Shown here in pieces: positions 4,342-27,647 of a stretch of 64,000 nt of DNA; the first letter of the stretch is position 1, and every line of letters starts with the position of its first letter. A model generated the notes under the pieces. It was given only the letters and a program-made list of their open reading frames with translations. It was not told the DNA's origin and made no database searches. The position numbers were made by a program, and so were the translations under genes. Location: the NCBI GenBank assembly GCA_963702475.1, contig CAVPCT010000006.1:289405-353404 (forward strand). Direction: 5' to 3'. This stretch comes from an uncultured Thermoleophilia bacterium. GTDB taxonomy: Bacteria; Actinomycetota; Thermoleophilia; UBA2241.

Positions 4342-4382
4342 CTCAGTCGACCTCATCGCCGTGCGCGTGGGAGAATCGGAGA

Positions 4383-6224: not shown

Positions 6225-6256
6225 TTCAGGAGGGAGGAGCGGGACGACCGCGGCGG

Positions 6257-6616: not shown

Positions 6617-6725
6617 CCGGTGATTGTAGACCTTTCGCGCGGGTTTCCTACCCGAGGTGGAGCGGCGTCCCATCCTTTGGACGGAGACGCGGCGTCGTCT
6701 CGGCTTGAGGTATCATGGGCGGCCG

Positions 6726-8294: not shown

Positions 8295-8422
8295 CGCTCC
8301 GCCGCCGCTGCCCGAGTCGGCCCACTCCCGCTTCCCTGCCTGGCCGGCGGCTGCCTGAGTGAGCCCGGACCGTCCTTCGGGGAACAACCCCTGCAGATCC
8401 ATCGACCAGAAGACAGGAGGGG

Positions 8423-10588: not shown

Positions 10589-10729
10589 GCTGCTCCTCCG
10601 CGTGTGGGTGCGGCCGCCGCCGCCGCTCGCATCCCGGACCCTACGCGGCGAGGCCGGAGCGTGCAACGAAGCCTGTCGCTCGTGCGCGGTCTCCTGCGGT
10701 GCCGGCCTTACCCCCCGGGTCCCGGGACG

Positions 10730-11953
10730 TCACGGCCGGCTCTCGAGCGCGGCCACCGCCCGCGGCAGGTCAGCGAGCCACGAGACCTCTGCGTCCGGCG
10801 GAGCGGCCCCGGCTGGCCGGGCTGCGCGCACCCGGTTGAACCAGACCGCGCGCAGGCCGGCTTGCCTCGCGCCCTCGACGTCGTTGGCCCACGAGTCGCC
10901 GACCATCACCGCGTCGTGCGCTCCCAGGGGGACGCCGCCGTGCCCCGCACGCAGTAAGACGGCCCTGAAGAAGAACGGATCGGGCTTGGCGACACCCACG
11001 TCGCGCGAGCTCACGACGTCGTCCACCAGGTCTGCAAGGCCCACGCGCGCGAGCGCCGCGCGGACGTCGCGCGCGCTCGAGTCCTCGGCGTTGGTGGCGA
11101 CGATGATGCGGTGGTCCGCGCGCAGCGACTCCAGCGCCTCTGCAGCTCCCTCGACCGCCGCGACGCGAGCCCACGTCGCCATGGGCCCCGGCTGCGTCCC
11201 GTCGTCCTCCATCAGGGTGCCGCCCCAGTCGACCAGAACGACAGCCGCAGATTCTCGCGTGGGGCCGACCCGCGCCGCCCGGATCTGCTTCCCCCCGGGG
11301 ACTGGCCGGACGCTCGCCATGGCGTCCGGCCGCGGCGGAAGCAGGAGGGCCGCGGCGGCGACGATGACGACAGCCAGTGCCCAGGCGCCGAGCACGTCGG
11401 TCAGCCAGTGGACGCCCAGGTACAGGCGCGAGGCGCCCATGACGACGGCGAAGATGCCGACGAGCACCGACGCGGGCAGGCGCCACCTCGTCGGCCAGGC
11501 CACCACCGCGATGGCGAGCGCCAAGGTCGCCGAGGCCAGCGAGTGGCCGCTGGGGAACGCCAGGCCGCTCACGTGCAGGGCGGCGTCCTCTACCGGCGGC
11601 CGGATCCGCCCGAACGCCAGCTTGAGCAGCGGGTTGAGCGCGAGCGCGGTCACCAGTGCCGCGGCCAGGAACGCGGCCGCCCGCCGTCTGCTTGTGGCCG
11701 TCAGGCCGGCGACGACGGCCACACCGGCCGCCGCGATGGCGAGCCACTGACCGAGGCCGGTGTAGGCCTCGAAGAACCCGGTCAGCGCCGGTGTGCGGCG
11801 GGCGGCGAGCATCTCGTTGATGGCTACGTCCAGACCAGCGGACCCGCCGCTCAGGGCGATGGTCGCGATGGCCGCGAACGCGACCAGGCCGGCGATGAGC
11901 GCCGTGAGGGCGGCGCGACGGTGCGGTCCGCCGCCGCTCAGCACCCCGGGCAT
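10730..11953 (-). CDS. PAP2 phosphatase - HAD hydrolase fusion protein
   Basis: The N-terminal membrane half has the three PAP2 motifs KLAFGRIRPP, FPSGHS and SRLYLGVHWLTDV. The C-terminal half is HAD-like (VLVDWGGTL, VSSRDVGVAKPD, MVGDSWANDVEGA). Start at ATG aa 172 of ORF 10730-12466, overlapping the upstream stop by 16 nt. Confidence 0.7.
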   Translation of the reverse strand: MPGVLSGGGPHRRAALTALIAGLVAFAAIATIALSGGSAGLDVAINEMLAARRTPALTGFFEAYTGLGQWLAIAAAGVAVVAGLTATSRRRAAAFLAAALVTALALNPLLKLAFGRIRPPVEDAALHVSGLAFPSGHSLASATLALAIAVVAWPTRWRLPASVLVGIFAVVMGASRLYLGVHWLTDVLGAWALAVVIVAAAALLLPPRPDAMASVRPVPGGKQIRAARVGPTRESAAVVLVDWGGTLMEDDGTQPGPMATWARVAAVEGAAEALESLRADHRIIVATNAEDSSARDVRAALARVGLADLVDDVVSSRDVGVAKPDPFFFRAVLLRAGHGGVPLGAHDAVMVGDSWANDVEGARQAGLRAVWFNRVRAARPAGAAPPDAEVSWLADLPRAVAALESRP

Positions 11954-12672
11954 ATGAGCCCGCCGAGCAGCTCGGGAAGCTCGTCGAAGCGGCGCACGAT
12001 GAGGTCGGCCGTCGAATGCCGCAGGTCGTGGTCGTTGACGGCCACGAAGTGGGCGGCGGCCATTCCGGCGGCCTGGGCCCCGGCGACGTCGGTGCGCTGG
12101 ATGTCGCCGACGTGGGCCGCCTCCCCGGCGCGGACGCCCAGCTGTGCGAGCGTGTGCCGGAACACGCGCACGTCGGGCTTGCTGACGCCGTGCTCGTTGG
12201 AGAAGAAGAGGTACTCGAAGGACTCCAACATGTCGTACCGGGACAGCACCTGGCGCAGCACGCGTCCCGGAGACCACCCGGTATCGCAGATCACCGCGAG
12301 GTGGAAGCGTTCGCGGAGCCGCGGCAGGGTCGCCTGGGCCCCGGGCATGGGCTCCGGCGGCAGCTCCAGCACGAGGTCCTCGAAAGCCCCCACCACCCGC
12401 TCGCCGACCTCGTCCGGGGGTGTGAACCCCAGGGCCATGAACATCGCGTCCACGAGCTCCGCGCACGGCGGCGTACGGTGCTCAACGATCCAGACGCGGT
12501 CGAAATGGTCGAAGGCGGTGCGCAGGGCCTCGTCGACGATCAGCGGCGAGCACTCCGTCCCGAGTCCGGCCAGCTCGTCGCGGACGATCTGCGCGCGGCG
12601 TGCCTCCCTCTCCCGACCGTGGGGGTCGGCGACCAGCGTGTTCCAGAAGTCGAACGTGACGGCGCGCAGCAT
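11938..12672 (-). CDS. HAD-superfamily hydrolase
   Basis: MLRAVTFDFWNTLV (motif I), FFSNEHGVSKPD and HVGDIQRTDVAGAQAAG. This is the 244-aa C-terminal part of ORF 11938-13524. Confidence 0.8.
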   Translation of the reverse strand: MLRAVTFDFWNTLVADPHGREREARRAQIVRDELAGLGTECSPLIVDEALRTAFDHFDRVWIVEHRTPPCAELVDAMFMALGFTPPDEVGERVVGAFEDLVLELPPEPMPGAQATLPRLRERFHLAVICDTGWSPGRVLRQVLSRYDMLESFEYLFFSNEHGVSKPDVRVFRHTLAQLGVRAGEAAHVGDIQRTDVAGAQAAGMAAAHFVAVNDHDLRHSTADLIVRRFDELPELLGGLICPGC

Positions 12673-12765
12673 GGCGCAAGCGTACCAGAGGGCAGTGCGC
12701 AGGACGGCGGGCATCGTCGGCGTCGGCCCGCCCATCCCCGCGCCGGCACTCCCGGCTCCTGCTGT

Positions 12766-12771
12766 TAGACT
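12766..12771 (+). promoter_or_regulatory. Candidate -10 hexamer (TAGACT) for a leaderless CDF transcript
   Basis: TAGACT ends 6 nt before ATG 12778, and there is no Shine-Dalgarno in between. Confidence 0.3.
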
Positions 12772-12777
12772 GAACGC

Positions 12778-13770
12778 ATGGCGGCGGAATCGAAGAAGGC
12801 GATCGTCGCGGCGATCGTCGGCAACGCCGCGATCGCCGTGATCAAGTTCATCGCCGGTGCCATGACCGGCAGCTCGGCGATGATCTCCGAGGGTATCCAC
12901 TCGCTCGTGGACACGGGCAACGGCGGCCTGCTGTTCTATGGGCTGAAGCGGGGGGCCAGGCCCGCCGACCGCGAGCATCCCTTCGGCCACGGCGGCGAGG
13001 TCTACTTCTGGAGCCTCATCGTCGCCGTGAGCATCTTCGGCATCGGCGGCGGCATGTCGATCTACGAGGGCATCACGCACATGCAGCATCCCGTGACCCT
13101 CAAAGACCCCACCGTCAACTACGTCGTGCTTGCGCTGGCTATGGCATTCGAGTCGCTCTCGTTCACCGTCGCCTGGCGCGCGTTCAAGCGCGCGAAGGGC
13201 AAACGCGGCGTGCTCTCCGCCATCCACCGCGGCAAGGACCCGAGCCTGTTCACGGTGCTGTTCGAGGACACAGCGGCACTGCTCGGCCTCGTGGTGGCCT
13301 TCTTCGGCGTGCTGCTCAGCCACACGCTGGACATGCCGGTGCTCGACGGGGCAGCGTCGGTGGGCATCGGGGCGATCCTCGTGTGTGCCGCACTCTGGCT
13401 GGCCTACGAGAGCAAGAGCCTTCTGGTGGGCGAGGCTGCGGACCCGGACGTGGTCGCCACGATCCGCGAAATCGCGCTGGCCGACCCCGATGTGGAAGGC
13501 CTCGGTGTGGTGCTGACCATGCACCTCGGCCCGGAGGACGTGTTGCTCAACATCGAGGTGCAGTTCACGCCGGGCCTGCCCGCGGAATCCGTTCAGGAGG
13601 CAGTGCTTCGCATCGAGGACCTCATCACTGAGAGGTACCCCGAGGTGAACCGCATCTTCATCGAGGTCCGGGCGTTGCGGCCCGGCGCGACCGGGGGCGA
13701 GCCCGGGGTCGCCGCGGGCGCGGCGTCCGGAGACGCGGCCGTCGCGGAGAGCGCAGGGTCTGCGACATGA
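12778..13770 (+). CDS. Cation diffusion facilitator (CDF) family metal efflux transporter
   Basis: N-terminus KKAIVAAIVGNAAIAVIKFIAG...SEGIHSLVDTGN, six TM helices and a C-terminal cytoplasmic domain. Confidence 0.9.
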   Translation: MAAESKKAIVAAIVGNAAIAVIKFIAGAMTGSSAMISEGIHSLVDTGNGGLLFYGLKRGARPADREHPFGHGGEVYFWSLIVAVSIFGIGGGMSIYEGITHMQHPVTLKDPTVNYVVLALAMAFESLSFTVAWRAFKRAKGKRGVLSAIHRGKDPSLFTVLFEDTAALLGLVVAFFGVLLSHTLDMPVLDGAASVGIGAILVCAALWLAYESKSLLVGEAADPDVVATIREIALADPDVEGLGVVLTMHLGPEDVLLNIEVQFTPGLPAESVQEAVLRIEDLITERYPEVNRIFIEVRALRPGATGGEPGVAAGAASGDAAVAESAGSAT

Positions 13771-13964
13771 CCTGGATCAACGCCGCCCTCATCGCCTGCG
13801 TGGTCGCCACCCTGTGTCTCGGCTTCTACCTCGTGTGGTTCATCGCACACCCAAACCGCCCGGAACAGGAGCAGCAGGAGAGCGACGAAGGCGCTGGCAG
13901 TCAGGGTCTCGAGGACCCTGACGACGGGCGTCGCGAGGAGGATCCGGCGGGTGAGCGTCGCTGA
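13767..13964 (+). CDS. Small single-TM protein with an acidic tail (hypothetical)
   Basis: The ATG overlaps the CDF stop (ATGA). MTWINAALIACVVATLCLGFYLVWFIAHP is followed by an E/D/Q-rich tail. There is no family match by eye. Confidence 0.3.
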   Translation: MTWINAALIACVVATLCLGFYLVWFIAHPNRPEQEQQESDEGAGSQGLEDPDDGRREEDPAGERR

Positions 13965-14089
13965 ACGTACGGCGGGCCGCGGGGCGCCGGTGCTCGAGTC
14001 GGAGTGTCCATGACGCCGAGATCGAGACCGGCGGCAGCGTCATGCTGCGGCGCGACCCGCGGCCTCACTCTCCCTGAGGATGAGGCGCC

Positions 14090-14704
14090 GTGACCTCACG
14101 AGCCGGCGGCCGGCGCCCTCGGGTGGTCCTGAACGAAGGCACGCGCATCGTGCTTGCCGGCCTCGGCCTGTACGTCGTGATCGCCGTCGTGATCTGGCTG
14201 TTCCCGGCCCTGCGCTTCACGCCGGCCCGCCCCGCGTGGGCCGCGATCGCGGGCTGGGGGCTTCTCCTGGCGTCGCTCGCCGTGTGGCTCGTGGCGGCGC
14301 GAAGCATGCGCGCCGCGTACGCGGCCGGGCAGTTCCCGACGGCCGGGCTGTTCGCGTGGGTGCGACACCCCATCTACACAGCCCTCATCTTCGTGCAGTG
14401 CCCGGGCCTGATTGTCTGGCTGTGGGGCTGGCCGGCGCTGGTCCTGCCGTTCGTCGCGTACGGACTGTCCCGCTGGGCGGTGCGGCGCGAGGAATCGCGC
14501 CTGTACGATCACTTCGGGCCGTCGTACGAGGCTTACCAGCGCACCGTCCCGGCGCTCTTCCCGCGCCTGCGCCGCCGGCCGCCGCCGGGTGTCGGCGGCG
14601 AACTCGTCAATCGCAGAGTGAAGACGCGCAAGGCCGCGGCGGCCCGCTCCGCCGCCCGCCGGGGCGGCAAGGACCGCTCGGACTCGCACCTCCGCGGGCT
14701 CTGA
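14090..14704 (+). CDS. Isoprenylcysteine carboxyl / phospholipid methyltransferase family membrane protein
   Basis: GLFAWVRHPIYTALIF...REESRLYDHFGPSYEAYQRTVPALFP is typical of the ICMT/PEMT family. GTG start. Confidence 0.72.
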   Translation: MTSRAGGRRPRVVLNEGTRIVLAGLGLYVVIAVVIWLFPALRFTPARPAWAAIAGWGLLLASLAVWLVAARSMRAAYAAGQFPTAGLFAWVRHPIYTALIFVQCPGLIVWLWGWPALVLPFVAYGLSRWAVRREESRLYDHFGPSYEAYQRTVPALFPRLRRRPPPGVGGELVNRRVKTRKAAAARSAARRGGKDRSDSHLRGL

Positions 14705-14735
14705 GGGCGCGGAAAGCCGGAGGTCGCCCCGAAGC

Positions 14736-15503
14736 TCACCCGCCGAGCGGGCGCAGGTGCGCGCTCGCGACCCGCCGCTTGCAGCGGTCGCACAGGTCGT
14801 CGCTGCCGTCGATCCCGTGGGTCTGGGAAGCCGCCATGGCCGCGGCGTGCTCGCGCGTGGTGATCGGCCTGCCGCAGTGCTCGCAGGGCAAGAGCTCGAA
14901 CGTGCGCCCCCAGATCGTGCGTGTGGTGGGTGTGTCCCCCATGCCGATGCACGCGGTGGGGCAGACTTCGTGACAGGATCCGCAGCCCACGCAGTTGAGG
15001 GCCGTCTCCTGCCCGTACGGCGGGCCGATGTACTTGTGGTCGCCGCGGCCGATCGCTGCGAGCGCGCTGTAGCCCAGGGCCGCGCACACGCGCACGCAGA
15101 GCTCGCAGAGGATGCAGTCCGGGAGAGGGGCGCCGGTCAGGGGCGCGAAGCGTGGCTCCGCGGCTCCGAGTCGGGCGGCCAGCCGCTGAAGGACGGGGGC
15201 CCGTGGCGCGCGACGCAGCAGGAGCTGCACGTTCATGAGCCGGTGCTTGCGGATGGCCGGCGAGTCGGTGACCACATCGAGGCCGTCGGACGCAGGGTAG
15301 TCGCACGAGGTGGTCAGCTGCGTCCAGTCGCGGCCCGGCCGCCGGATCTCGACCAGGCAGAGCCGGCACGACGCGACGGCCGGCACCCCCTCGTTGTGGC
15401 AGAGCGCCGGCACGTCGCGCCCGGCACGGCGAGCGGCGTCGAGGACGCTCGCGTCGGCGGGCGCCGTCACCTGTTCGCCGTCGATGATGAGCGATACGTC
15501 CAC
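14736..15503 (-). CDS. [2Fe-2S] plus [4Fe-4S] iron-sulfur subunit resembling the N-terminal FeS part of HydA/NuoG, with no catalytic domain
   Basis: Plant-type 2Fe-2S pattern C..ASCRLCLVEI...TSC, then CILCELCVRVC and CVGCGSCHEVCPTAC. It is the last gene of the aor operon. Confidence 0.8.
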   Translation of the reverse strand: MDVSLIIDGEQVTAPADASVLDAARRAGRDVPALCHNEGVPAVASCRLCLVEIRRPGRDWTQLTTSCDYPASDGLDVVTDSPAIRKHRLMNVQLLLRRAPRAPVLQRLAARLGAAEPRFAPLTGAPLPDCILCELCVRVCAALGYSALAAIGRGDHKYIGPPYGQETALNCVGCGSCHEVCPTACIGMGDTPTTRTIWGRTFELLPCEHCGRPITTREHAAAMAASQTHGIDGSDDLCDRCKRRVASAHLRPLGG

Positions 15504-15512
15504 GGCGCCCTC

Positions 15513-17366
15513 CTACCGCACCAGCACGGCGTCGTACTTGCACACGTCTTTGCAGATGCCGCACTTGATGCAGAGCTCCTGGTCGATCGCGTGCGGCTGC
15601 TTCTTCTGGCCGGTGATCGCTTCCTGCGGGCAGCGGCGTGCGCACAGCATGCAGCCGGTGCACGACTCCGCGTCGATACTGAATGCGATGAGCGCCTTGC
15701 ACACACCCGCGGGGCAGCGCTTCTCGTCCACGTGCGCGAGGTACTCGTCGCGGAAGTAGTGCAGCGTCGACAGCACCGGATTGACGGCGCTCGTGCCCAG
15801 GGCGCACAGCGAGGTGGCCTCCACCGTGTCTGCGAGCTCCTCTACCAGGGCGAGCGTCTCGCGCGTGCCGCGGCCTTCGGCGATCTCGCCAAGCAGCTCG
15901 TGCAGGCACTCGAGACCGTCGCGGCACGAGGTACAGTTGCCGCACGACTCCGAGGCCAGGAAGCGGAGGAAGTACCTGGCGACGTCCACCATGCACGTGT
16001 CTTCGTCCATGACGATCATGCCGCCCGACCCCATCATGGAGCCCTCGGCCACGAGCGTGTCGAAGTCCACGGGCACGTCCAGCTTCTCCGCAGGCAGGCA
16101 GCCTCCGGACGGCCCGCCGGTCTGGACTGCCTTGAACGCCTTTCCCCCCGGGATGCCGCCGCCGGCGTCGAAGATGATCTCGCGCAGGCTCATGCCCATC
16201 GGGACCTCGACCAGGCCGGTGTTGTTCACCTTGCCGACCAGGGAGAAGATCTTCGTCCCCGGAGAGCCGTCTGTGCCGATCGCACGAAACCACCCGGCGC
16301 CGTTGAGCACGATGTGCGGCACGTTGGCCCAGGTCTCCACGTTGTTGACGTTGGTCGGCCGACCCCACAGCCCGTGTTCTGAGAGATGGATGAGCCGCCG
16401 GTGCGGCACGCCGCGGCGGCCCTCCAGCGACGCCATCATGGCGCTCGCCTCGCCGCACACGAACGCGCCGCCGCCGCGGCTCACGCGCACGTTGAGGCAC
16501 AGACCGCTCCCGAGGATGTCGTCGCCGAGCAGGCCGAGCTCGCGCGCCTGACCGATGGCCACGTCGAGGTGCTCCACGGCCAGTGGGTACTCCTGACGCA
16601 CGTACACCACACCCTCTCGGGCCCCGATGGCGAAGGCCCCGATGGTCATGCCCTCGAGCACGCTGTGAGGGTTCCCCTCGAGGATCGAGCGATCCATGAA
16701 GGCGCCCGGATCGCCCTCGTCGGCGTTGCACACCACGTACTTGAGGTCTCCCTCCGCCCTGCGGCAGGCCTCCCACTTGCGACCGGCGGGGAAGCCCGCT
16801 CCGCCCCTGCCCCGCAAGCCCGAGCGCTTGACCTCGTCCAGGACGGCCTCCGGGCCCAACTCCAATGCCTTGGCGAGCGCCGAATAGCCGCCGACGGCGA
16901 TGTAGTCGTCGATCGAGGTGGGGTCGCGCCGGCCGGCGTCGCGCAAGAGGAGCCGCTCCTGGTAGCGGTAGAAGGGGATCTGGTCCTCGCGGGTGTGTCG
17001 CAGGCCGGTCGCCGGGTCCTCGTACAGCAGACGCTCGAGCACTTCGCCGTTCAGCAGGGCCTTCTCGACGAGCTCGGGCACGTCCTCCACGCGCACGCGC
17101 TGGTAGAGGATACCCTTGGGGTAGAGGAGCACGAGCGGCCCGCGCTCACAGAACCCGTGGCAGCCGGTCGCCCGCATCGTGACCAGGCAGTCCGAGCCGA
17201 GTGCCTCGAGTTCGTCGCACAGGGCCCGGAACACCTTCATGGCGCCTTGCGCCCGGCAGCCCGTCCCGCCGCAGACGGCGACGACCGTAGCGGCGGCGTC
17301 CCGGCCCGCGACCAGCGCGTCGCGGTGGCTGCCCAGAGAGCCGGGGTCGGCGAACCGCGCGCTCAC
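15513..17366 (-). CDS. NuoF/HydB-like NAD(P)H-binding flavoprotein subunit with an extra N-terminal 2Fe-2S domain and a C-terminal 2x[4Fe-4S] domain
   Basis: GRGGAGFPAGRKWE (FMN/NADH site) and ESCGNCTSCRDG (N3 cluster). N-terminal thioredoxin-like VCGGTGC...CHGFCERGP. C-terminal CTGCMLCARRCP and CIKCGICKDVC. Confidence 0.92.
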   Translation of the reverse strand: MSARFADPGSLGSHRDALVAGRDAAATVVAVCGGTGCRAQGAMKVFRALCDELEALGSDCLVTMRATGCHGFCERGPLVLLYPKGILYQRVRVEDVPELVEKALLNGEVLERLLYEDPATGLRHTREDQIPFYRYQERLLLRDAGRRDPTSIDDYIAVGGYSALAKALELGPEAVLDEVKRSGLRGRGGAGFPAGRKWEACRRAEGDLKYVVCNADEGDPGAFMDRSILEGNPHSVLEGMTIGAFAIGAREGVVYVRQEYPLAVEHLDVAIGQARELGLLGDDILGSGLCLNVRVSRGGGAFVCGEASAMMASLEGRRGVPHRRLIHLSEHGLWGRPTNVNNVETWANVPHIVLNGAGWFRAIGTDGSPGTKIFSLVGKVNNTGLVEVPMGMSLREIIFDAGGGIPGGKAFKAVQTGGPSGGCLPAEKLDVPVDFDTLVAEGSMMGSGGMIVMDEDTCMVDVARYFLRFLASESCGNCTSCRDGLECLHELLGEIAEGRGTRETLALVEELADTVEATSLCALGTSAVNPVLSTLHYFRDEYLAHVDEKRCPAGVCKALIAFSIDAESCTGCMLCARRCPQEAITGQKKQPHAIDQELCIKCGICKDVCKYDAVLVR

Positions 17367-17878
17367 GACGGCTCCTCGGCAGCCAGGAGCTCGCCGACCA
17401 GCCGGGAGAGACGCTCACTGGTCATGTGGCCGTGGTAGTCGTCGTCGAGGAGGACGAGCGGGCCGAGGGCGCAGGCGCCCACGCAGCTCACCTCCTCGAC
17501 GGTCAGCGATGAGTCGGGTGCGGTGCCGCCGGCCGCCACACCGGTGTCGCGCTCCAGCTGCTCTAGCAGCCGCGGCGCACCTCGCACGTGGCAGGCGGTG
17601 CCCATGCAGACGGTACAGGTGTGCCTGCCGCGGGGCTCGGTGCGGAAGCCGTGGTAGAAGGTCGCCACCCCGTAGACCTGTGTCTCCGACAGCACGACGT
17701 GGGACGCCGTCTCACGCATGGCCGCCTCCGGCAGGTAGCTGAACTCGGCCTGCAGGTCGTGCAGGATGTTCACGAGGTCGCCCGGGTCACGCCGGGGGTA
17801 GCGGGCAAGGACCGACGCGATCCGGCTCTGGTCGGTCGCCGCGTCGCTCACCGTCTCGTCCTTCCGGCGGTCCATCAT
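17363..17878 (-). CDS. NuoE/HydC-like [2Fe-2S] subunit
   Basis: CTVCMGTACHVRG and VSCVGACALGP cysteine pattern. The stop overlaps the NuoF-like start by 4 nt. Confidence 0.9.
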   Translation of the reverse strand: MMDRRKDETVSDAATDQSRIASVLARYPRRDPGDLVNILHDLQAEFSYLPEAAMRETASHVVLSETQVYGVATFYHGFRTEPRGRHTCTVCMGTACHVRGAPRLLEQLERDTGVAAGGTAPDSSLTVEEVSCVGACALGPLVLLDDDYHGHMTSERLSRLVGELLAAEEPS

Positions 17879-17887
17879 GCCGTCCTC

Positions 17888-18160
17888 TCAGCCGCCGGCG
17901 ATCATCGGGAAGACGGAGATCTCGTCGTCGTCCCCGAGCGGCGTGTCCAGCCCCTGCAGGTGCCGCACGTTGCGGCCGTTGACGAGGATGATGATCTCGG
18001 CGTGCAGAGCCTCCCCGTCGAACACGGTGCGCCGGAACAGCCGGCCGTAGCGCTCCGCGAGCTGCGTGAGCAGCTCGCGGAGATCGCTCGGTCGGCCGTC
18101 GATCCGGCGCTCCTGCTCCCTCGTGAGGGAGCGGATGGTGGCGAAGTACTTGACCGTCAT
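17888..18160 (-). CDS. MoaD/ThiS-family ubiquitin-like protein (C-terminal GG)
   Basis: 90 aa, MTVKYFATIRSL...ISVFPMIAGG. The start overlaps the AOR stop (ATGA). This is the C-terminal part of ORF 17888-19600. Confidence 0.75.
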   Translation of the reverse strand: MTVKYFATIRSLTREQERRIDGRPSDLRELLTQLAERYGRLFRRTVFDGEALHAEIIILVNGRNVRHLQGLDTPLGDDDEISVFPMIAGG

Positions 18161-19965
18161 GCCTTGAGCGAGAGCTCCTTCAGCTTCGCCTTGCTCGGCA
18201 CGCCGTCCTCGTCCCAGCCCCGCTTCGCGTAGTAGTCGGGCACCATGTGGCCGAGCTTGCTCACGTGGCCCTTGGATGCGCCGCTCTTGATGGGCTCTTC
18301 GAGCAGCCGCCTGGGCAGCGTGTCGTCGTCCTTGGTGAACCCGGCGGCGATGTTCCAGAGCTTCTCCTGGTTCCAGATCCGATCGCCGATGAGCAGGAAC
18401 TCCTGGAGCGTGTAGTCCTCGCCGGTGAGCGCGGACAGCATCTCCGTGAGCTCCTCGCCACCGATGCCGAAGGTCGAGAACAGGCACGCGCCGGTCGCGT
18501 CGAGCGCGGCCGTGAGGTTCTGGAAGGCGATGCCGAGGCCAGCCTTCTCGTCGGGGCTGTGCGGGTCTGAGCTGCCGCCGCTCTGCAGGATCTCGTGCGA
18601 GATGGTGTAGCCGCGCACGTGGCAGCCGCCGCGGTTGCTGGTCGCGTAGTTGAGGCCGATGCCCTGGATGGCGCGGGCGTCGTAGGCCGGCATCTCCTGC
18701 TTCTTGGCCGTCATGGAGTACTCGGGGTGGCCGTAGCCGTCCGCCAGGCGGTGGGAGCCCTGGGCGATCTTGGCGCCGAAGCCCTCGCCCTCGCCCGCCT
18801 TGCGCGTCATCTCGACGATCGCGGCGGCGTTGCCGAAGCTCAGGTCCACGCCGTCGGTGTCGGCGGTCGTGATGATGCCGCGCTGGAACAGCTCCATCGC
18901 GCAGGCGATCGTGGAGCCCGTGGAGATGGTGTCCATGCCGTACTCGTTGCACAGGTAGTTGGCCTTGGTGATGGCGTCCAGGTCGTCGACGCCGCAGTCG
19001 GCGCCGTAGGCCCAGGCGGTCTCGTACTCGGGGCCTTCGCCGATGCCCTCGTAGCCGGGGGCGTCGACCTTGGTGACGCGGCCGCAGGAGATGATGCAGC
19101 TGAAGCAGCCCTTCTTGCGGATCAGCTGCTTGGCGGCCAGGGACTCGCCGCCGGTCTTGTCGGCCGTCGGGAAGTACGCGTCCTGCCAGTTGCGAGTGGG
19201 CAGGCCGCCGGACTGGTTGAGGATGTTGACGAGCACGTCCGTTCCGTAGGCCGGCAGGCCGGTGCCGCCGACGGGGTGGTCGAAGATCAGCTGGCGCGCC
19301 TTGAGCACGGCCGCCTTGAAGCCCTCGGGGTCGGCCACCTGGACGGCGCCGGTGCCGAGTACGGCGACCGCCTTGAGGTTCTTGGAGCCCATCACCGCGC
19401 CGACGCCGGTGCGTCCCGCGGCGCGGTGCATGTCGTTCATGATGTTGGCGACCAGCGCCAGGTGTTCGCCGGCCGGGCCGATGCAGGCGACCTTGGCGTC
19501 GTCGTCGGTCTCGGCCCTGACCAGGTCGGTGGTGTCGGGCACGGTGTGGCCCCAAAGGGCCGCCGCGTCGCGGATCTCGACCTGGTCGTCCTTGATCCAC
19601 AGGTACACGGGCTTGGCGGCCTTACCCTCGATGATGACGGCGTCGTAGCCGGCGTACTTGACCTCCGGGCCGAAGTTGCCGCCCGAGTTGGAGGCGGCCA
19701 GCGAGTCGTTGAGGGCGCCCTTGGTGACGACGTTGTAGCGCCCGGCGGACGGCGCGAAGGTGCCGGTCAGCGGCCCGGTCGCGAAGACGAGCTTGTTCTT
19801 GGGCCCGAGGGCGTCCGCCTTGGGGTCGACCTCGGCGCGGATGATGGCGCCGCCCAGGCCGCGCGCGCCGATGAAGTCACGGGCGAGCTTGCGGTCGAGG
19901 GCCTCGCGGGTGACGCTGCCGCTGGTGAGGTCGATGCGGAGGATCGTTCCGGTCCAGCCGTACAT
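18157..19965 (-). CDS. aor: Aldehyde:ferredoxin oxidoreductase family (tungsto/molybdopterin) catalytic subunit
   Basis: MYGWTGTILRIDLTSG N-terminus, GCFSCIISC cluster motif, EGPEYETAWAYG and DATGACLF, at the full AOR length of about 600 aa. Confidence 0.95.
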   Translation of the reverse strand: MYGWTGTILRIDLTSGSVTREALDRKLARDFIGARGLGGAIIRAEVDPKADALGPKNKLVFATGPLTGTFAPSAGRYNVVTKGALNDSLAASNSGGNFGPEVKYAGYDAVIIEGKAAKPVYLWIKDDQVEIRDAAALWGHTVPDTTDLVRAETDDDAKVACIGPAGEHLALVANIMNDMHRAAGRTGVGAVMGSKNLKAVAVLGTGAVQVADPEGFKAAVLKARQLIFDHPVGGTGLPAYGTDVLVNILNQSGGLPTRNWQDAYFPTADKTGGESLAAKQLIRKKGCFSCIISCGRVTKVDAPGYEGIGEGPEYETAWAYGADCGVDDLDAITKANYLCNEYGMDTISTGSTIACAMELFQRGIITTADTDGVDLSFGNAAAIVEMTRKAGEGEGFGAKIAQGSHRLADGYGHPEYSMTAKKQEMPAYDARAIQGIGLNYATSNRGGCHVRGYTISHEILQSGGSSDPHSPDEKAGLGIAFQNLTAALDATGACLFSTFGIGGEELTEMLSALTGEDYTLQEFLLIGDRIWNQEKLWNIAAGFTKDDDTLPRRLLEEPIKSGASKGHVSKLGHMVPDYYAKRGWDEDGVPSKAKLKELSLKA

Positions 19966-19966
19966 C

Positions 19967-20449
19967 TCAGCTCACCTCCTGGAAGGCATCCTTGAACTTC
20001 GCCGCGTAGGCCTTCTTGCGGGCCTTCACCTGGGCGTCGTCGTCCAGGTACTCCAGGGCCTTGGTGGGGCAGAAGGCGACGCACTCGGGCGCGCCCTGGC
20101 AGTTGTCGCACTTGAAGATGCTGCTGGAGGCCGCGTCGTAGCGGGCGTTGCCGAACGGGCAGGCGATCACGCACATCTTGCAGCGGATGCACTTGGCCTC
20201 GTCGTAGTCGATGAGGCCGGCGATCGTGTAGCTGGGGTGCATGGCTCCGGTGGGGCAGACGGTGACGCAGGCTGCGTCGTCGCACTGCTGGCACATCATC
20301 GGCACCGAGATGCCCTCGCGCTCCCAGGTGAACGCCTGGACGCGCGAGGCTCCCGGACGGAACCTGCCCTCGTGCTCGAACGAGCACGCGAGCTCGCAGT
20401 TGCGGCACCCGGTGCACTTGTCCGGGTGGATCATCAGGACCTTGGCCAT
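19967..20449 (-). CDS. 4x[4Fe-4S] ferredoxin-like electron-transfer subunit (AorA/DmsB-like)
   Basis: Four cluster motifs: CTGCRNCELAC, CQQCDDAACVTVCP, CIRCKMCVIACP and CDNCQGAPECVAFCP. ATG 20449 lies after GGAGGA, and the stop is 1 nt before the aor start. Confidence 0.9.
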   Translation of the reverse strand: MAKVLMIHPDKCTGCRNCELACSFEHEGRFRPGASRVQAFTWEREGISVPMMCQQCDDAACVTVCPTGAMHPSYTIAGLIDYDEAKCIRCKMCVIACPFGNARYDAASSSIFKCDNCQGAPECVAFCPTKALEYLDDDAQVKARKKAYAAKFKDAFQEVS

Positions 20450-20500
20450 GGCATCCTCCTGCTGGGAGCACTGTTGCCGCCGGCGCGGCCGGCCGGGAGC

Positions 20501-20623
20501 GCGCCGCTCTGCGTGTGCGGCGGACCGTCGATCCAGAGGATGCTGCACACGCCCCTGGGCGGCGAGTCGACGGGCGACCACTCTTGGCCGTGGCGGATTG
20601 GGCGTGTGCACAGGCGCCGCTCT
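20501..20623. promoter_or_regulatory. Repeated GCGTGTGC / GCGCCGCTCT motifs in the aor promoter region (candidate operator)
   Basis: GCGTGTGC is at 20511-20518 and 20602-20609, with its complement GCACACGC at 20545-20552. GCGCCGCTCT is at 20501-20510 and 20614-20623. Confidence 0.3.
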
Positions 20624-20666
20624 CGCGGGCTGCCGCGAGGGGCGGCCTCGCCCGACGCGTGCCGAG

Positions 20667-20686
20667 GCCGCACCGGGGGGTGCGGC
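20667..20686 (-). terminator. Hairpin abutting the PucR-family gene stop
   Basis: 8-bp stem GCCGCACC / GGTGCGGC with a GGGG loop. The last base is part of the stop codon. No U-tract. Confidence 0.3.
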
Positions 20687-22170
20687 TAGCTGGAAGGCTC
20701 GCCGAGCAGCTCGGCCGCGTGCAGACCGAGGCGCACGTCGACGACCGCGTCCAGGTCGCCGAGGTCGACACCGAGCAGCTGCTCGACGTGGGCGAGGCGT
20801 TTCTGCAGCGTGTTGCGGTGGATGTGGAGCGCGTCGGCCGTCTCCTGGACGGCGAGCCGGCGCTCGAAGTAGGTACGCAAGGTCGCGTACAGGCTGGCGC
20901 GGTGCTGCGCGTCGTAGTCCAGGACCGGGCCGAAGGTCCGCGCGACGATGCCGGTCAGCTCCTGCTCGTCGAGCGCGTCGAGGAGGCGGAAGTGGCCGCT
21001 CAACTCCTCGAAGACGCCGCCTTCGCCGGGGTTGTGCGCGAGGCGCGCGGCGATGCAGGCTGCCTTGGCCTGCTGCAGCCCGCGGGCGGCGCCGATGACC
21101 CCACCGAGCGGCGCCGAGCAGCCTGCAACGACGCCGCCGTCGCTGACCGGCGCGGCGGCATCGCGTAGACCGGCGAGCAGGCCTCGCGCCGTGCCGGGCC
21201 CGGCGTCGGGCACGGCGGTGAGGATGACCGCCCTGTGGTCCACCGACGCCGTCAGATAGGGGACGCGGCGCGCGCTCAGCGCAGCGTCCAGCGCGTGCAG
21301 CAGGTCAGCCTCGCGACCGGCGGCCTTGTCCGTCCGCATGGTCCTGGCTGCCGGGTCGAGCGGCTCGACGACGGCCAGACGGAGCACGGCATCGTCGGCG
21401 AAGCCTTGGGCCTGCAGCCGCACCCGCAGCTCGTCGGGCGTGCCGTCGCCGTTGAGCACGTCGTGGAGCAGTCCGCGGCGCAACCTGCGCCGCATGCGCA
21501 GCTCGTCCTTGCCGCGCAGCAGGTCCAGGGCCACGAGCTGCTGCATGAAGACGAGCGAGGCGCCGGCGAACTCCGACGGCCGGTGCCGGCCGATCCTGGC
21601 CGCGAGGACCCGCTCGACCCTGCCCATCACGAGCACGTCGCGGAAGGACACGCGCTCGCCGGTGCTCGTGATGGATGCCGCGTCGGCCTGGCGGTCCCGC
21701 TCCTCGTAGGCGGCCCACAGGCTCCGCTCGAGTTCCGGTGCGGCGCCGGCGCTGCGCGAGGCGCACACCACGTGGCCCTGCGGGTCGAAGAGGACGAGGG
21801 GGACGTCGAGGATCGAGGCGACCCGCTCGACCAGTTCGGCCACGTCCTTCTGCTGGACGACGAGCTCGAGAAGCTGGATCTGCAGCGCGGCGGTGCGCCG
21901 CAGCGTCTGCATGTCGCCGGCGGCCGTAGCCGGCCCCCCATCCTCGTCGTGCTCCTGACGCCTGAGCGCCTCCTCGAGTTCCTCGGTGTGCAGGCGCACC
22001 TGGTCCTGCAGCATGATCGTCGTCTGAAAGAGGCCGAAGTCCGAGCCCTGGACCTTCGTCCCGGCCTCCGCACGGTCCATGAGTGCGTCGACCACCTTGT
22101 TGAGCCGCACGATCTCGGCCTTCAGGGCTTGAACGTCGTCGCCGGGGGCGTTGTGCGAGAGGTCAGTCAT
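20686..22170 (-). CDS. PucR/CdaR-family transcriptional regulator with an N-terminal coiled coil
   Basis: C-terminal HTH LAVQETADALHIHRNTLQKRLAHVEQLLGVDL. N-terminal heptad-like DVQALKAEIVRLNKVVDALMDRAEAG. The start overlaps the FIST stop by 8 nt. Confidence 0.85.
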   Translation of the reverse strand: MTDLSHNAPGDDVQALKAEIVRLNKVVDALMDRAEAGTKVQGSDFGLFQTTIMLQDQVRLHTEELEEALRRQEHDEDGGPATAAGDMQTLRRTAALQIQLLELVVQQKDVAELVERVASILDVPLVLFDPQGHVVCASRSAGAAPELERSLWAAYEERDRQADAASITSTGERVSFRDVLVMGRVERVLAARIGRHRPSEFAGASLVFMQQLVALDLLRGKDELRMRRRLRRGLLHDVLNGDGTPDELRVRLQAQGFADDAVLRLAVVEPLDPAARTMRTDKAAGREADLLHALDAALSARRVPYLTASVDHRAVILTAVPDAGPGTARGLLAGLRDAAAPVSDGGVVAGCSAPLGGVIGAARGLQQAKAACIAARLAHNPGEGGVFEELSGHFRLLDALDEQELTGIVARTFGPVLDYDAQHRASLYATLRTYFERRLAVQETADALHIHRNTLQKRLAHVEQLLGVDLGDLDAVVDVRLGLHAAELLGEPSS

Positions 22171-23305
22171 CGTCCCGTCCGCCGCCGAAGGCGATCGCCG
22201 TGAGTGTCTGGTTCACGTGGACCCCGCAGAACTGCTCCCCGTAGGTGTTGAAGCCGATCGCGTTGTTCCGCCGCAGCACCTTGCTCACGGCGTCGCGCTG
22301 GCCGCTCTGGTCGATCTCGAGCTTGCGGAGGATGCAGTCGAACGTCAGCACGAGCTGGGGAGGCCCGACCTGGGCGCGAGCGCGGGCCAGGGCCGCCTCG
22401 AGGTTGTCGACCAGGTCGACGCCTCTGGCGATGCGCAGGACCACGCCACGGTCGATGGCGCAGTAGAGCTTGAGCCCGTCCGGCTCGACGCGCTGGATGG
22501 AGCGCACGTACTCGCTCCCGTCTACGAGGACGACCATCGGCGAGGCGGCGAAGTGCGCCGGGCCCAGCTCGGCGGGGTCGATGCCGAGCAGGCGCGCGTA
22601 TTCCTCGGCCGCCGGCAGCCCGTTGATCTCACGCACCAGGCGCCTGGCCGGGTCCGCCTCCGTCACCACGAGGCGCTCATCGGTGGCCGTGAAGTGCTGG
22701 GTCTTGAACTCGGCGATGGGCAGCGGCGTGGCGGCGAGCACGAGGACGGCCGCGTCGCGCGAGAAGCGGCCGTCGCAGTAGACGTAGGTCCCCTCGAAGT
22801 CCAGCGAGTCCCCCGCGGAGCCGCCGACGAGTGGGATGTCGCCGAGCCCCTCCTGCAGCGCGTGGGCGACCTGCTCCTCGTGCCCGAACAGGCCGTCGAC
22901 GAGGAGGAAGGCGAAGGTGTTCCACGTGCCGTCCCCGACGAGGTCGCCCAGCCGGCGGCGCAGGTCCTGGGCGACGGCGACGCCGTCCGCGCTGCGGAAG
23001 GAGTCGAGCCCCTCGAGGCGCCCGATGACCGCGGTGCAGACACGCGCTGCGAAGCTCACGCCGGCGAGGCTGTGCTCCCGGCAGCCGGCCGGGCCGATCT
23101 CGCCGGCGGTGGTGCAGCCGACCACGGGCACGCCGGCGAAGCGGACGGCCATCTCCGCCGCGAGCGCGTCGCGGTCGTAGCGGCTCGAGCAGAAGAACAG
23201 CACCAGCGACGCGTCGGGCTGTGTGATGCTGTCGTGCAGCTCAGCCGCAGCCTCGCTGGGGTCGTGTGCGCATGACTGTGCGATGCGGATGGTCTCGTCG
23301 GCCAC
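22163..23305 (-). CDS. FIST (FIST_N + FIST_C) sensory domain protein
   Basis: This is the C-terminal 380 aa of ORF 22163-25723. Contains LVLFFCSSRYD, VVGCTTAGEIGP, FLLVDGL, PLVGGSAGD, and FNTYGEQF near the C-terminus. GTG 23305 was chosen as the first in-frame start after the antisense-typA part, so the start is uncertain. Confidence 0.78.
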   Translation of the reverse strand: MADETIRIAQSCAHDPSEAAAELHDSITQPDASLVLFFCSSRYDRDALAAEMAVRFAGVPVVGCTTAGEIGPAGCREHSLAGVSFAARVCTAVIGRLEGLDSFRSADGVAVAQDLRRRLGDLVGDGTWNTFAFLLVDGLFGHEEQVAHALQEGLGDIPLVGGSAGDSLDFEGTYVYCDGRFSRDAAVLVLAATPLPIAEFKTQHFTATDERLVVTEADPARRLVREINGLPAAEEYARLLGIDPAELGPAHFAASPMVVLVDGSEYVRSIQRVEPDGLKLYCAIDRGVVLRIARGVDLVDNLEAALARARAQVGPPQLVLTFDCILRKLEIDQSGQRDAVSKVLRRNNAIGFNTYGEQFCGVHVNQTLTAIAFGGGRDDD

Positions 23306-23435
23306 AAGCAGCCCCTGCTCGCCGTCGGTCCGGGGCTCTGCCCCGTGCGTAGTCAAGGGCCCATGATACTGCGGAGCCCTCCCTGCGGTGCTGCCTCGCG
23401 GCGTGCCGCTGAGTATGGGGTACAGTGGGGACCAG

Positions 23436-23648
23436 ATGGAGACGCTCGGCATTGTGGCTCTTGTCGTTGGACTCGCCTTGGTGGCGCTGCTGGCGGCTGC
23501 GCTGATCTGGTGGATCGCCAGGCGCATCGGTCGCGCCACGGGACTGGACCGCAAGGTCGACCAGTTCCTGGAGATCGATGGCGACGGCATGTCGCCGGAG
23601 GACCAGCTGAAGTTCCGCGAGCAGCACCCGGGCGGCGGGGGGGCGTGA
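23436..23648 (+). CDS. Small single-TM protein (hypothetical)
   Basis: METLGIVALVVGLALVALLAAALIWWIARRIG followed by a hydrophilic tail. No family recognised. Confidence 0.25.
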   Translation: METLGIVALVVGLALVALLAAALIWWIARRIGRATGLDRKVDQFLEIDGDGMSPEDQLKFREQHPGGGGA

Positions 23649-23821
23649 CCCGAGGCTCGGCCGGCCGGCAGCGGCGGCCGTAGCCGCACGGGGCGCGGCG
23701 CGGGCGACGAAGCCGCTCCCGCGCGGTACACTAGGGTACGCCCGGCCGGCGAAGCCGCGCCGGGCCTTCGCGCCTCAGCGGCCTCATCACCGTCATCCAC
23801 TCCGACAGAAAGACCCCGACC

Positions 23822-25780
23822 GTGCACGCTGTCGACAAGATCCGCAACCTCGCCATCATCGCCCACATCGATCACGGCAAGACCACGCTGATCGACAGCA
23901 TCTTCCGCGCCGCCCACGTGTTTCGCGACAACGCGCGCGTCGAGGAGCGCGTGATGGACAGCAACGACCTGGAGCGGGAGCGCGGCATCACCATCCGCTC
24001 CAAGCACTGCACGGTGGAGTGGAAGGACTACCTCATCAACATCATCGACACGCCGGGCCACGCCGACTTCTCCGGCGAGGTGGAGCGCGTGCTCAGCATG
24101 GTCGACTCGGTGCTCCTTCTCGTGGACGCCAACGAGGGCCCCATGCCGCAGACGCGCTACGTGCTCATGCGGGCGCTCGGGTTCGGGCTGCGGCCCATCG
24201 TCATCGTGAACAAGGCCGACCGGCCGAACGCCGACCCGTCCGGCGCCCTCGACAGGACCTTCGACCTCTTCGTGGAGCTGGGCGCCAGCAACGAGCAGCT
24301 GGACTTCCCAGTGCTCTACGGCTCGGGCCTCGAGGGTTGGATCGTCAACGACATCGACGAGTACAAGAAGGAAGAGCACGAGCGCGAGGAGCACCTCCAC
24401 GACGGCGCCGGGCTCTCGCCGGCGCTGTTGCGGGAGCTGGCCGACGCCGGCATGAACGACCTCTTCGAGACGATCGTCGAGAAGGTGCCGGCGCCCCAGG
24501 TGGTCCAGGACGCGCCCTTCCTCATGCAGGTCAGCACGCTCGCCTGGAGCGACTACATCGGGCGCATCGGCTGTGGCCGCGTGCTGCAGGGCGGCCTGAA
24601 GGTCGGCGACGAGCTGCAGCGCATCACGACGCGGCACCTGGAGGTCGGCGATCCGGACGCCGGCTGGGAGATCACGGGTTCGCAGTCCGCCCGTGTGACC
24701 CACGTCTGGGTGACGCGCGGCCTCGAGAACCGCGAGGTGGACGAGGCGGTGGCCGGCGACATCGTCTGGCTCGCCGGCCCCGACGACATCACCCTCGGCG
24801 ACACCCTGACCGCGCCCGGCCTGGAGCCGGACGCCGCGGCCCTGCCGCCACTCGAGATCGAAGAGCCCACGGTCTCCATGTTCTTTCTCGTGAACAACGG
24901 CCCGTTCGCCGGCCAGGACGGCAAGGCCGCCACGCTGCGCCAGATCAAGGACCGTCTGGATCGAGAGCTGCGCGTCAACGTCGCGCTCCGTGTGGAGGAC
25001 CTGGGGCGGCCGGACGGCGTCAAGGTGTCCGGCCGCGGCGAGCTGCACCTTGCCATCCTCATCGAGGAGATGCGCCGCGAGGGCATGGAGCTGTGCGTGA
25101 GCCGGCCCGAGGTCATCACCCACCGCGACTCGGCGGGCCACCTCATGGAGCCGATGGAGCAGCTGATCATCGACGTGCCCGAGGAGTACCAGGGCGCGAT
25201 CATCCAGGAGATCAGCCTGCGTAAGGGCGAGCTCGTCGCCGTGGAGGCCACCGGCACCGGCCTGGTGCGACTGGAGTTCACGATCACGACACGCGGGCTC
25301 ATCGGCTACCGCAACGACTTCCTCACGGAGACGCGCGGCCTGGGCGTGATGAGCTCGCGGTTCACCGGCTATGGCCGCTGGAAGGGCGAGCTCCCCGGGC
25401 GCGAGCGCGGATCGCTGGTGAGCCAGGCGGCCGGTGAAGCGGCGAGCTACTCGCTCGAGAACCTGCAGCAACGCGCGACCCTCTTCGTGACGAACATGAC
25501 GCCGGTCTACGAGGGCATGATCGTCGGTGAGAACTCGCGCGCCGACGACATGCTGTGCAACCCCACCAAGCGCAAGCAGCTTGGCAACTACCGCTCGTCC
25601 ACCAAGGAGATCGACGCCGGCCTCAAGGTGCCGCGCCCGCTCACCCTGGAGTCGGCCCTCGAGTGGATCGCCGACGACGAGCTCGTCGAGGTGACGCCCA
25701 AGATCGTGCGCGTGCGCAAGCACATCCTCAGCTCAGAGCAGCGCAAGAAGTTCGAGAAGCACGGGGCGGCCGAGGCCTGA
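23822..25780 (+). CDS. typA: Translational GTPase TypA/BipA
   Basis: G motifs [21 protein letters not shown] and VNKADR, followed by EF-G-like domains. GTG start. Confidence 0.95.
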
Positions 25781-27374: not shown

Positions 27375-27647
27375 CTACGAAGACTCGGTCTGGCCTTCGT
27401 GCCCCGAATCGTCAGAGTCCACGGATTCGAGCGACTCCAGGACTTCTCGGGCCTCGGCGAGGCGGTGCTCCTCCACCAGCACCTGGACGAGGCCCAGCCC
27501 GCCGCCGGACCCGGCGAACAGCCAGCTGCCGTGCTGCTCGCCTCGGGTCATGGCGGGGATGCCGGCGGCCTCGAGCGCGCCCTTGACGGCCTCCGCAGCG
27601 AACGTACCCATGACCATCGTGACGACGACCAGGCGGTCCTCGGTCAC
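27375..27647 (-). CDS. Small DUF2007-like (putative signal-transducing) protein
   Basis: VTEDRLVVVTMVMGTFAAEAVKGALEAAGIPAMTRGEQ... with an acidic tail. The GTG start overlaps the decarboxylase stop (GTGA). Confidence 0.45.
   Translation of the reverse strand: MTEDRLVVVTMVMGTFAAEAVKGALEAAGIPAMTRGEQHGSWLFAGSGGGLGLVQVLVEEHRLAEAREVLESLESVDSDDSGHEGQTESS

Follow-up and report, generated by a model that had tools for sequence, protein, structure and literature searches.

A tightly packed six-gene operon lies on the minus strand of a 64,000-nt stretch of contig CAVPCT010000006.1 (positions 289,405 to 353,404, about 70% G+C; 'the window' hereafter means the whole of this stretch). Judged from its sequence, it probably encodes, with a probability of roughly 0.8, an actinobacterial orthologue of the bifurcating tungsten aldehyde oxidoreductase WorABCSL (Wor-Bfu), as a member with a type 2 BfuABC module. 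Homologues of WorL, WorS and BfuA, BfuB and BfuC, all five, are encoded in this one tightly coupled cluster, together with a small MoaD-like protein. In the order of transcription, the genes are:

19967-20449, minus strand: WorS, 160 aa; 4x[4Fe-4S] 'nanowire' subunit with a C-terminal helix region
18157-19965, minus strand: WorL, the aldehyde oxidoreductase (AOR), 602 aa; catalytic subunit with tungsto-bispyranopterin and [4Fe-4S]
17888-18160, minus strand: MoaD/ThiS/SAMP1-like protein, 90 aa, with a Gly-Gly end; probable tungsten-cofactor maturation factor
17363-17878, minus strand: WorC (BfuC/HydC/NuoE-like), 171 aa; [2Fe-2S] subunit
15513-17366, minus strand: WorB (BfuB/HydB/NuoF-like), 617 aa; flavin mononucleotide (FMN)/NAD site, B5 [2Fe-2S], B1 [4Fe-4S], B3 and B4
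14736-15503, minus strand: WorA (type 2 BfuA), 255 aa; A1 [2Fe-2S], A2 and A4 [4Fe-4S], four-Cys zinc finger and helix

The tungsten oxidoreductases (WORs) of clade 87 have been divided into four types: M, consisting of WorL alone; N, in which WorSL is joined by a flavin adenine dinucleotide (FAD) subunit, as in AorABC; BF, in which it is joined by BfuABC (WorABCSL); and U, in which it is encoded beside a membrane complex (PMC12318220). The structure of the BF enzyme of Acetomicrobium mobile was solved by cryo-electron microscopy (PDB 9mqx, 2025), and it shows a single WorABC module attached to an iron-sulfur wire of composition (WorSL)3 (PMC12318220). The first-pass annotation of the window had proposed that a three-subunit module stands in place of the FAD subunit, and this matches the published distinction between the BF and N types (PMC12318220).

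Gene cluster and subunit assignments

Reading the junctions directly from the sequence, WorS and WorL are separated by a 1-nt gap, WorL and the MoaD-like gene overlap by 4 nt (ATGA), the MoaD-like gene and WorC lie 9 nt apart, WorC and WorB share a 4-nt GTGA overlap, and another 9-nt gap precedes WorA. The packing described in the first-pass annotation, six same-strand genes with 4-nt overlaps or gaps of at most 9 nt, is borne out at these coordinates on the minus strand. The G+C content at third codon positions (GC3) is 0.91–0.97 across the six frames, the codon-position signature of genuine genes, and many of the remaining long open reading frames (ORFs) of the region are antisense shadows. 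Because translational coupling is tight and the order S-L-MoaD-C-B-A is kept in relatives at 55–78% identity, we regard the operon as one functional unit.

Profile searches with Pfam and NCBIfam, which that annotation had itself proposed as a check, upheld its domain calls for all six proteins. WorS matches Fer4_7, Fer4_10 and Fer4_11 in Pfam, and motif reading places its 16 Cys in four groups, corresponding to four [4Fe-4S] clusters. Its best PDB match is the A. mobile subunit 9mqx_E (2e-47, residues 1-153 against 1-150 of 152), followed by AorA 8c0z_C (1.2e-39); the alignment to 9mqx_E spans the C-terminal helix, in which Lys-143, Phe-145 and Phe-149 of A. mobile are K, Y and F. WorL matches AFOR_N (7e-79) and AFOR_C (1e-143) and is closest over its full length to 9mqx_D (5.6e-227), with Pyrococcus furiosus AOR (1aor, 2e-199, also full length) and AorB (8c0z_A, 4e-180) as lower matches. 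It carries the motifs CFSCIISC (287-294), DATGAC (489-494, with Cys494), PEYE (312) and GGCH (446). The last two we take to be the counterparts of the catalytic Glu and His of P. furiosus AOR (1aor numbering).

The MoaD-like protein matches ThiS in Pfam (4.5e-18) and, in NCBIfam, moaD_arch with 76 bits (cutoff 49.5) and SAMP1 with 66 bits (cutoff 60); it ends in ...PMIAGG, and its gene comes after WorL in every actinobacterial locus examined. Within the AorABC operon, the MoaD-like aorD and aorE are likewise present, and their products are missing from the purified enzyme (PMC6365974). By this analogy, the MoaD-like protein is most likely a sulfur carrier or maturation factor for the tungsten cofactor and not a subunit. 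In Streptomyces relatives, the WorS-WorL-MoaD cassette is found near ThiF, MoeA, cysteine-desulfurase and TOBE-ABC-transporter genes.

The flavin and iron-sulfur (FeS) module is encoded by the last three genes. WorC is a 2Fe-2S_thioredx protein (5e-44) in which Cys 91/96/132/136 form the Cx4C...Cx3C pattern of C1 [2Fe-2S] ligands, and its top PDB matches are C subunits of bifurcating enzymes (7t2r_C 8e-36, 8a6t_C 4e-35, 9mqx_C 1.3e-30). In WorB, Pfam detects Complex1_51K, NADH_4Fe-4S and SLBB as well as an N-terminal 2Fe-2S_thioredx and a C-terminal Fer4 domain, so that the reported combination of an N-terminal thioredoxin-like 2Fe-2S domain with a C-terminal 2x[4Fe-4S] domain on the NuoF-like protein was confirmed. 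WorB is matched almost equally by 7t2r_B, the HydB of the A. mobile NiFe enzyme (8e-238), and by 9mqx_B (2.6e-235 over residues 22-613), and it aligns to residues 23-612 of the latter with few gaps. The motifs GRGGAGF, GAFMD, GAFVCGE, GGPSG, ESCGNCTSC and LCALG, along with H545-x5-C551-x4-C556, CTGCMLCARRCP and CIKCGICKDVC, supply the cluster ligands of B5, B1, B3 and B4 as well as the FMN/NAD motifs.

Losey et al. described three residue signatures that split bifurcating from non-bifurcating beta subunits (PMC7311640), namely Ala/Glu together with Met in the NADH site, a Phe close to FMN, and GGPSG, the non-bifurcating NuoF-like proteins having Thr/Ser..Lys and Tyr (PMC7311640). WorB carries all three bifurcating signatures: GAFMD at 221 (Ala, Met), GAFVCGE at 300 (Phe, not Tyr) and GGPSG at 417.

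Type 2 BfuA is defined by the absence of clusters A3 and A5 (PMC9304861), and WorA also carries a C-terminal zinc finger and helix (PMC12318220). The window protein fits this architecture. It matches Fer2_4 and Fer4, and its best PDB match is 9mqx_A, aligned end to end (6.6e-48, the runner-up being at 3e-22). Cys 35/46/49/67 correspond to A1, the two CxxCxxCxxxC motifs at 130/133/136/140 and 171/174/177/181 to A2 and A4, and the CxxC...CxxC formed by Cys 207/210/238/241 aligns with the zinc-finger Cys of A. mobile; these 16 Cys are invariant in the alignment that includes A. mobile WorA and in 36 homologues. Neither an HxxxCxxC...C motif nor an NADH-G_4Fe-4S_3 domain was found by motif reading and Pfam, which leaves WorA without the His-ligated A3, and A5 is likewise missing as the protein stops at 255 aa. 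In the AlphaFold model (mean predicted local distance difference test, pLDDT, 76), a helix at 239-248 follows right behind the second CxxC, and the top Foldseek match is again 9mqx_A (E 1.2e-19, template-modelling (TM) score 0.46). The first-pass annotation had likened this protein to only the FeS N-terminus of HydA/NuoG; the Fer2_4 and Fer4 domains agree with that description, but it overlooked the extra CxxC...CxxC and the C-terminal helix, which together with the lack of the His-ligated [4Fe-4S] give the architecture of WorA. Across the five subunits, all predicted cofactor and cluster ligands are conserved, and of the residues that form salt bridges in A. mobile (its numbering), WorA Arg-236 is Arg, WorS Lys-143 is Lys and WorL Glu-156 is Asp in the window.

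Electron path and alternative readings

By homology to the A. mobile enzyme, the aldehyde would be oxidized to the carboxylate at the tungsto-bispyranopterin of WorL, and the electrons would pass from the WorL [4Fe-4S] cluster to the four WorS clusters S1–S4 and along the WorS wire. The zinc finger and helix of WorA should, by the same analogy, dock onto WorS, so that electrons would enter WorA at A4, travel on through A2 and A1, and reach WorB at B1 and then the FMN. There they would be split, one pair going to NAD+ and the other via C1 of WorC and B3/B4 of WorB to ferredoxin, giving overall 2 RCHO + NAD+ + 2 Fd(ox) -> 2 RCOO- + NADH + 2 Fd(red). In A. mobile, aldehyde oxidation reduces NAD and ferredoxin simultaneously and neither is reduced alone (PMC9304861). 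The subunit-by-subunit homology to WorABCSL therefore favours, by analogy, the earlier proposal of an AOR coupled to both NAD(P)H and ferredoxin.

Several observations weigh against this assignment. WorC finds its best PDB match in a protein other than the WorC of 9mqx, and WorB resembles the HydB of a NiFe hydrogenase (7t2r_B) as closely as it does the WorB of 9mqx. Identity to an Acetomicrobium genome is moderate (WorL 58%, WorB 57%, WorS 52%, WorA 39% and WorC 38%). The gene order S-L-MoaD-C-B-A differs from the C-B-A-S-L of the A. mobile type, this latter order being a property of the type example and not a defining feature of Wor-Bfu. For WorA, model quality is only moderate (pLDDT 76, TM score 0.46 to 9mqx_A), and four hydrophobic residues in the C-terminal helix of the A. 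mobile protein, Tyr-238, Phe-242, Ile-244 and Phe-245, are unconserved, the window protein ending in ...KRRVASAHLRPLGG. Since these contact residues differ, the docking geometry and the 1:3 stoichiometry are assumptions. Finally, the need for bifurcation with a donor at -560 mV is itself debated (PMC9304861).

One alternative is a non-bifurcating, NAD-linked complex, in which WorABC would be a mere diaphorase resembling HoxEFU or FdsBG, equivalent to AorC, and ferredoxin would not be obligatory. At about -560 mV, aldehyde oxidation is thermodynamically able to drive NAD+ reduction directly (PMC9304861), FeS-domain content by itself is not fully diagnostic of bifurcation (PMC7311640), and in NCBIfam the C subunit scores best as HoxE and the A subunit as HoxU-like, with both scores far below the cut-offs. 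Unlike a HoxEFU-type diaphorase, however, WorB has the C-terminal 2x[4Fe-4S] domain and the full set of bifurcating residue signatures; it also has an N-terminal [2Fe-2S] domain, and the nearest characterized homologue reduces neither acceptor alone (PMC9304861). We consider a simple diaphorase unlikely on this evidence. A complex that bifurcates could also run backwards in the cell, as a confurcating carboxylate reductase that uses NADH and reduced ferredoxin to make aldehydes, for example for alcohol formation. Bfu enzymes are described as reversible (PMC9304861), and AOR-family enzymes reduce acids with low-potential donors (PMC9295118). Yet for a couple at -560 mV, NADH (about -280 mV) plus ferredoxin (about -500 mV) is a weaker reductant than ferredoxin alone (PMC9304861), and confurcation would therefore hinder acid reduction; moreover, neither an alcohol dehydrogenase nor a gene for acid activation turned up with Pfam in the roughly 8 kb that flank the operon on each side or among the further window genes sampled. 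A reductive role thus seems quite improbable.

The operon might, on the other hand, hold two independent neighbours, a ferredoxin-linked WorSL(+MoaD) AOR and a BfuABC-like module that serves a partner encoded elsewhere. Some relatives do carry WorS-WorL-MoaD without WorCBA and join it to a different module, so the cassette is separable in evolution. In the window, by contrast, the 9-nt gaps and the 4-nt overlap tie the MoaD-like gene to WorC, WorB and WorA; WorA belongs to the short adaptors, and its closest solved relative is seen physically inserted into WorS; and the gene order is kept in four loci. Two unconnected systems would be very surprising under these circumstances.

Related loci, output modules and regulators

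The gene contexts of relatives were obtained through the contigs that encode the homologues; a profile search of genome contigs with the WorA alignment gave, among the matches listed, generic HydA/HoxU-type N-termini, with the closest relatives absent. The closest named homologues of WorL belong to metagenome-assembled genomes (MAGs) of Thermoleophilia (74–81% identity). In two relatives (L082 and the P0097 contig), the order typA/FIST/PucR/WorS/WorL/MoaD/WorC/WorB/WorA/CDF...gltX/etfBA is kept, with WorA only 66–70% identical to that of the window, and a Thermoleophilia MAG (L006, contig_37822) has the same eight-gene order from FIST to WorA. As the whole arrangement is conserved in the first two and the eight-gene block in the third, the operon is an old, vertically kept feature of the lineage. 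In L006, the wor genes at 5400-10600 match in fragments (coverage of WorL 0.67, WorB 0.43 and MoaD 0.47), which suggests frameshift errors in a long-read assembly and not pseudogenes; WorB is similarly split in the gene calls of L082.

Outside this lineage, the complete order C-B-A-S-L, without a MoaD gene, is found at the Acetomicrobium locus (L009) and on a Methanofollis-binned contig (L004, NZ_CALFSA010000045.1), and a contig binned as Methanoregula (L016, JAQTSH010000120.1) has WorB-WorA only. Feng et al. 2025 found BF-type WORs confined to Bacteria (PMC12318220); given that L004 and L016 are short contigs (5.5–7.2 kb), mis-binning is possible.

The WorA search returned 670 matches at E <=1e-10. 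Every one of the top 120 cluster representatives has a length near 254 aa and is 63–76% identical; most are metagenomic, and the contexts of four were checked; close homologues thus make up at least 120 distinct 90%-identity clusters in environmental metagenomes. Published counts, which come from different, reference-genome-based data sets, are 29 BF-type WORs in Feng et al. 2025 (PMC12318220) and 37 Wor-Bfu sequences in Schut et al. 2022 (PMC9304861). The Wor-Bfu literature consulted, including PMC9304861, places these enzymes in Synergistetes and Firmicutes, without mention of Actinobacteria, and our literature search returned no publication linking Thermoleophilia with AOR.

The typA-FIST-PucR-WorS-WorL-MoaD locus recurs in a further Thermoleophilia MAG (L085; identity to the window: FIST 69%, PucR 60%, WorS 82.5%, WorL 74%), where it is followed not by WorCBA but by a six-gene Ech/Mbh-like membrane complex; the cassette and this complex lie at 9001-17782. 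The S-L-MoaD cassette with this six-gene module was also found in Streptomyces cavernae, in Streptomyces sp. YIM S03343 (L084), where hypF adjoins the module, and in another metagenome contig:

L083, about 8500-17900: same cassette and six-gene membrane module
L084, about 8500-17900: same cassette and six-gene membrane module
L086, about 8500-17900: same cassette and six-gene membrane module

The module encodes a 1036-aa antiporter-like subunit and NuoB-, NuoH-, NuoI-, NuoC- and NuoD/HycE-like subunits; in the last, the two [NiFe] ligand motifs are intact (RVCGICSNVH and DPCYSCTDR). These loci correspond to the U type of clade 87, with a cassette close to that of the window (WorS 62–83% and WorL 70–74% identical); the output differs, being an Ech/Mbh-like membrane complex with intact [NiFe] motifs in the U type and WorCBA in the window. 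For the U type, which is uncharacterized, a "quinone-related dehydrogenase" has been suggested as the membrane complex (PMC12318220). Because both [NiFe] motifs are kept, the module looks to us like a group-4 hydrogenase instead, and its sequence suggests that the U-type relatives are aldehyde-linked group-4 hydrogenases, even in cultured Streptomyces, for which our literature search found no publication on a WorSL-hydrogenase-like cluster.

A small neighbour-joining tree of WorL does not separate the BF from the U sequences of Actinobacteria; the two form a mixed group that is sister to the Acetomicrobium-type BF sequences. This pattern suggests that modules were exchanged while the WorSL-MoaD cassette was conserved. 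We advance a broader proposal tentatively, at somewhat less than even odds: that in a Thermoleophilia-like actinobacterial lineage the TypA/FIST/PucR/WorS-WorL-MoaD locus carries interchangeable output 'plugs', either soluble WorCBA or a membrane-bound group-4 [NiFe]-hydrogenase-like complex (a possible 'aldehyde hydrogenlyase'), with the WorS wire as a generic socket, and that BF-type WORs make up a large unrecognized environmental clade outside gut Synergistetes/Firmicutes, controlled by small molecules through FIST/PucR and not by a riboswitch. If so, the interchangeable plugs would be natural evidence for the generic socket. The comparison of these loci offers a clean natural example of output-module swapping on one WorSL cassette.

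Upstream of WorS, the window has the following features:

22163-23299, minus strand: putative sensor with a FIST domain (Pfam FIST (FIST N) 2.8e-45, FIST_C 3.5e-26); start codon uncertain
20686-22170, minus strand: PucR-family regulator (Pfam HTH_30 9e-18, GGDEF_2 3.7e-8)
20450-20685, minus strand: leader/promoter region of 236 nt, with a strong ribosome-binding site (AGGAGGA) ahead of the WorS ATG

The end of the FIST gene and the beginning of the PucR gene share 8 nt. L006, L082, L085 and the P0097 contig all have the FIST gene ahead of their wor genes, whichever output module follows, and PucR orthologues of about 60% identity occupy the same position in four related loci. FIST and PucR are probably a sensor/regulator pair that controls expression of the operon, and such a conserved dedicated pair could help to find the physiological aldehyde of the clade. 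For the E. limosum enzyme, a tungstopterin riboswitch of the molybdenum/tungsten cofactor (Moco/Tuco) class has been reported. Riboswitch control was considered for the window and rejected: no Rfam model matched at the gathering threshold in the whole window, a permissive Rfam scan of the 236-nt leader gave only two chance-level matches (E about 10), and there is accordingly no detectable Moco/Tuco riboswitch. A promoter and terminator scan of 14000-23900 (70% GC) was uninformative: its only promoter-like site was weak and lay within typA, and terminator-like sites were no more frequent than chance.

A 1186-aa ORF (22163-25723, minus strand) had been a candidate for a large oxidoreductase; by codon-position GC it is the FIST gene joined to an antisense shadow of typA, the coding pattern beginning only below about 23330, and it was discarded. 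The ORF at 11938-13776 (minus) is likewise a fusion, of HAD and anti-CDF. Long fused ORFs of this kind are a typical high-GC artefact that would mislead gene calling based on ORF length. A PAP2 phosphatase-HAD fusion protein at 10730-11937 (minus) was missed by the GC3 filter and has the same form in L082 (14096-15400). Of the other neighbours scanned, most have housekeeping or unrelated functions (typA, a CDF transporter, PAP2-HAD, GT87, gltX and etfAB). No tungstate transporter, Moco-biosynthesis or ferredoxin gene was found among the 20 flanking and nearby genes scanned with Pfam, about half of the window's genes lying outside that scan. Farther from the operon, the window holds etfBA (2133-4443, minus) and a B12-binding radical SAM protein (32710-34323, plus), with no link to the operon established; the same applies to a PLP-dependent decarboxylase (27644-28996, minus), a possible source of amine or aldehyde.

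Comparison with known systems

The first-pass annotation could not say whether its combination of AOR with a HydBC/NuoEF-type module had been characterized before. Its interpretation was right, but the implied novelty does not stand, because this five-subunit combination is already characterized biochemically and structurally in A. mobile WorABCSL (Schut 2021, as cited in PMC12318220 and PMC9304861, and PDB 9mqx). With the enzyme type established, the window adds no new mechanism. It extends bifurcating tungsten aldehyde oxidoreductases to high-GC Actinomycetota, and its residual interest lies in this phylum extension and the apparent environmental abundance, in the operon layout, the FIST/PucR control and the module swap at an orthologous locus. 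The comparison of output modules at this locus is useful for engineering aldehyde/acid biocatalysts and for considering how evolution assembled Bfu enzymes.

A. mobile WorABCSL (AmWOR1) has the same five subunits, domains and cluster-ligand sets as the window, including a short WorA without A3/A5, a 16-Cys WorS and a WorB with B5/FMN/B1/B3/B4, and its chains in 9mqx are the best solved-structure match for three of the five subunits (WorA, WorL and WorS). The window differs in its embedded MoaD-like gene and in the FIST and PucR genes upstream. Its host is a high-GC Thermoleophilia-like actinobacterium, whereas Wor-Bfu has been reported from Synergistetes and Firmicutes (PMC9304861).

In AorABC of Aromatoleum aromaticum (N type, PDB 8c0z), AorA and AorB are homologous to WorS and WorL, the S-then-L order and the presence of MoaD-like gene(s) in the operon agree with the window, and the C-terminal helix of the FeS subunit serves wire formation, as in the WorS type. 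AorABC, however, uses an FAD subunit and NAD alone, whereas the window has three Bfu subunits with NAD and ferredoxin as the expected acceptors. Pfam detected no FAD/Pyr_redox homologue of AorC among the six genes or those within about 8 kb on each side, and for this reason we do not assign the window enzyme to the N type. P. furiosus AOR (M type, without extra subunits; PMC12318220) retains the cluster Cys motif found in WorL but has neither a WorS wire nor a Bfu module and reduces ferredoxin directly.

The closest parallels to the flavin module are the hydrogenases HydABC ([FeFe]) and HydABCSL ([NiFe], PDB 7t2r). They share the BfuBC core, WorB matching 8a6t_B at 2e-223, and the N-terminal [2Fe-2S] and ferredoxin-like clusters of their A subunit are shared with WorA. 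Unlike that subunit, WorA has no H-cluster or hydrogenase-like C-terminal domain and lacks A3/A5, and the third substrate of the window enzyme, in contrast to that of HydABC and HydABCSL, would be an aldehyde oxidized via WorSL.

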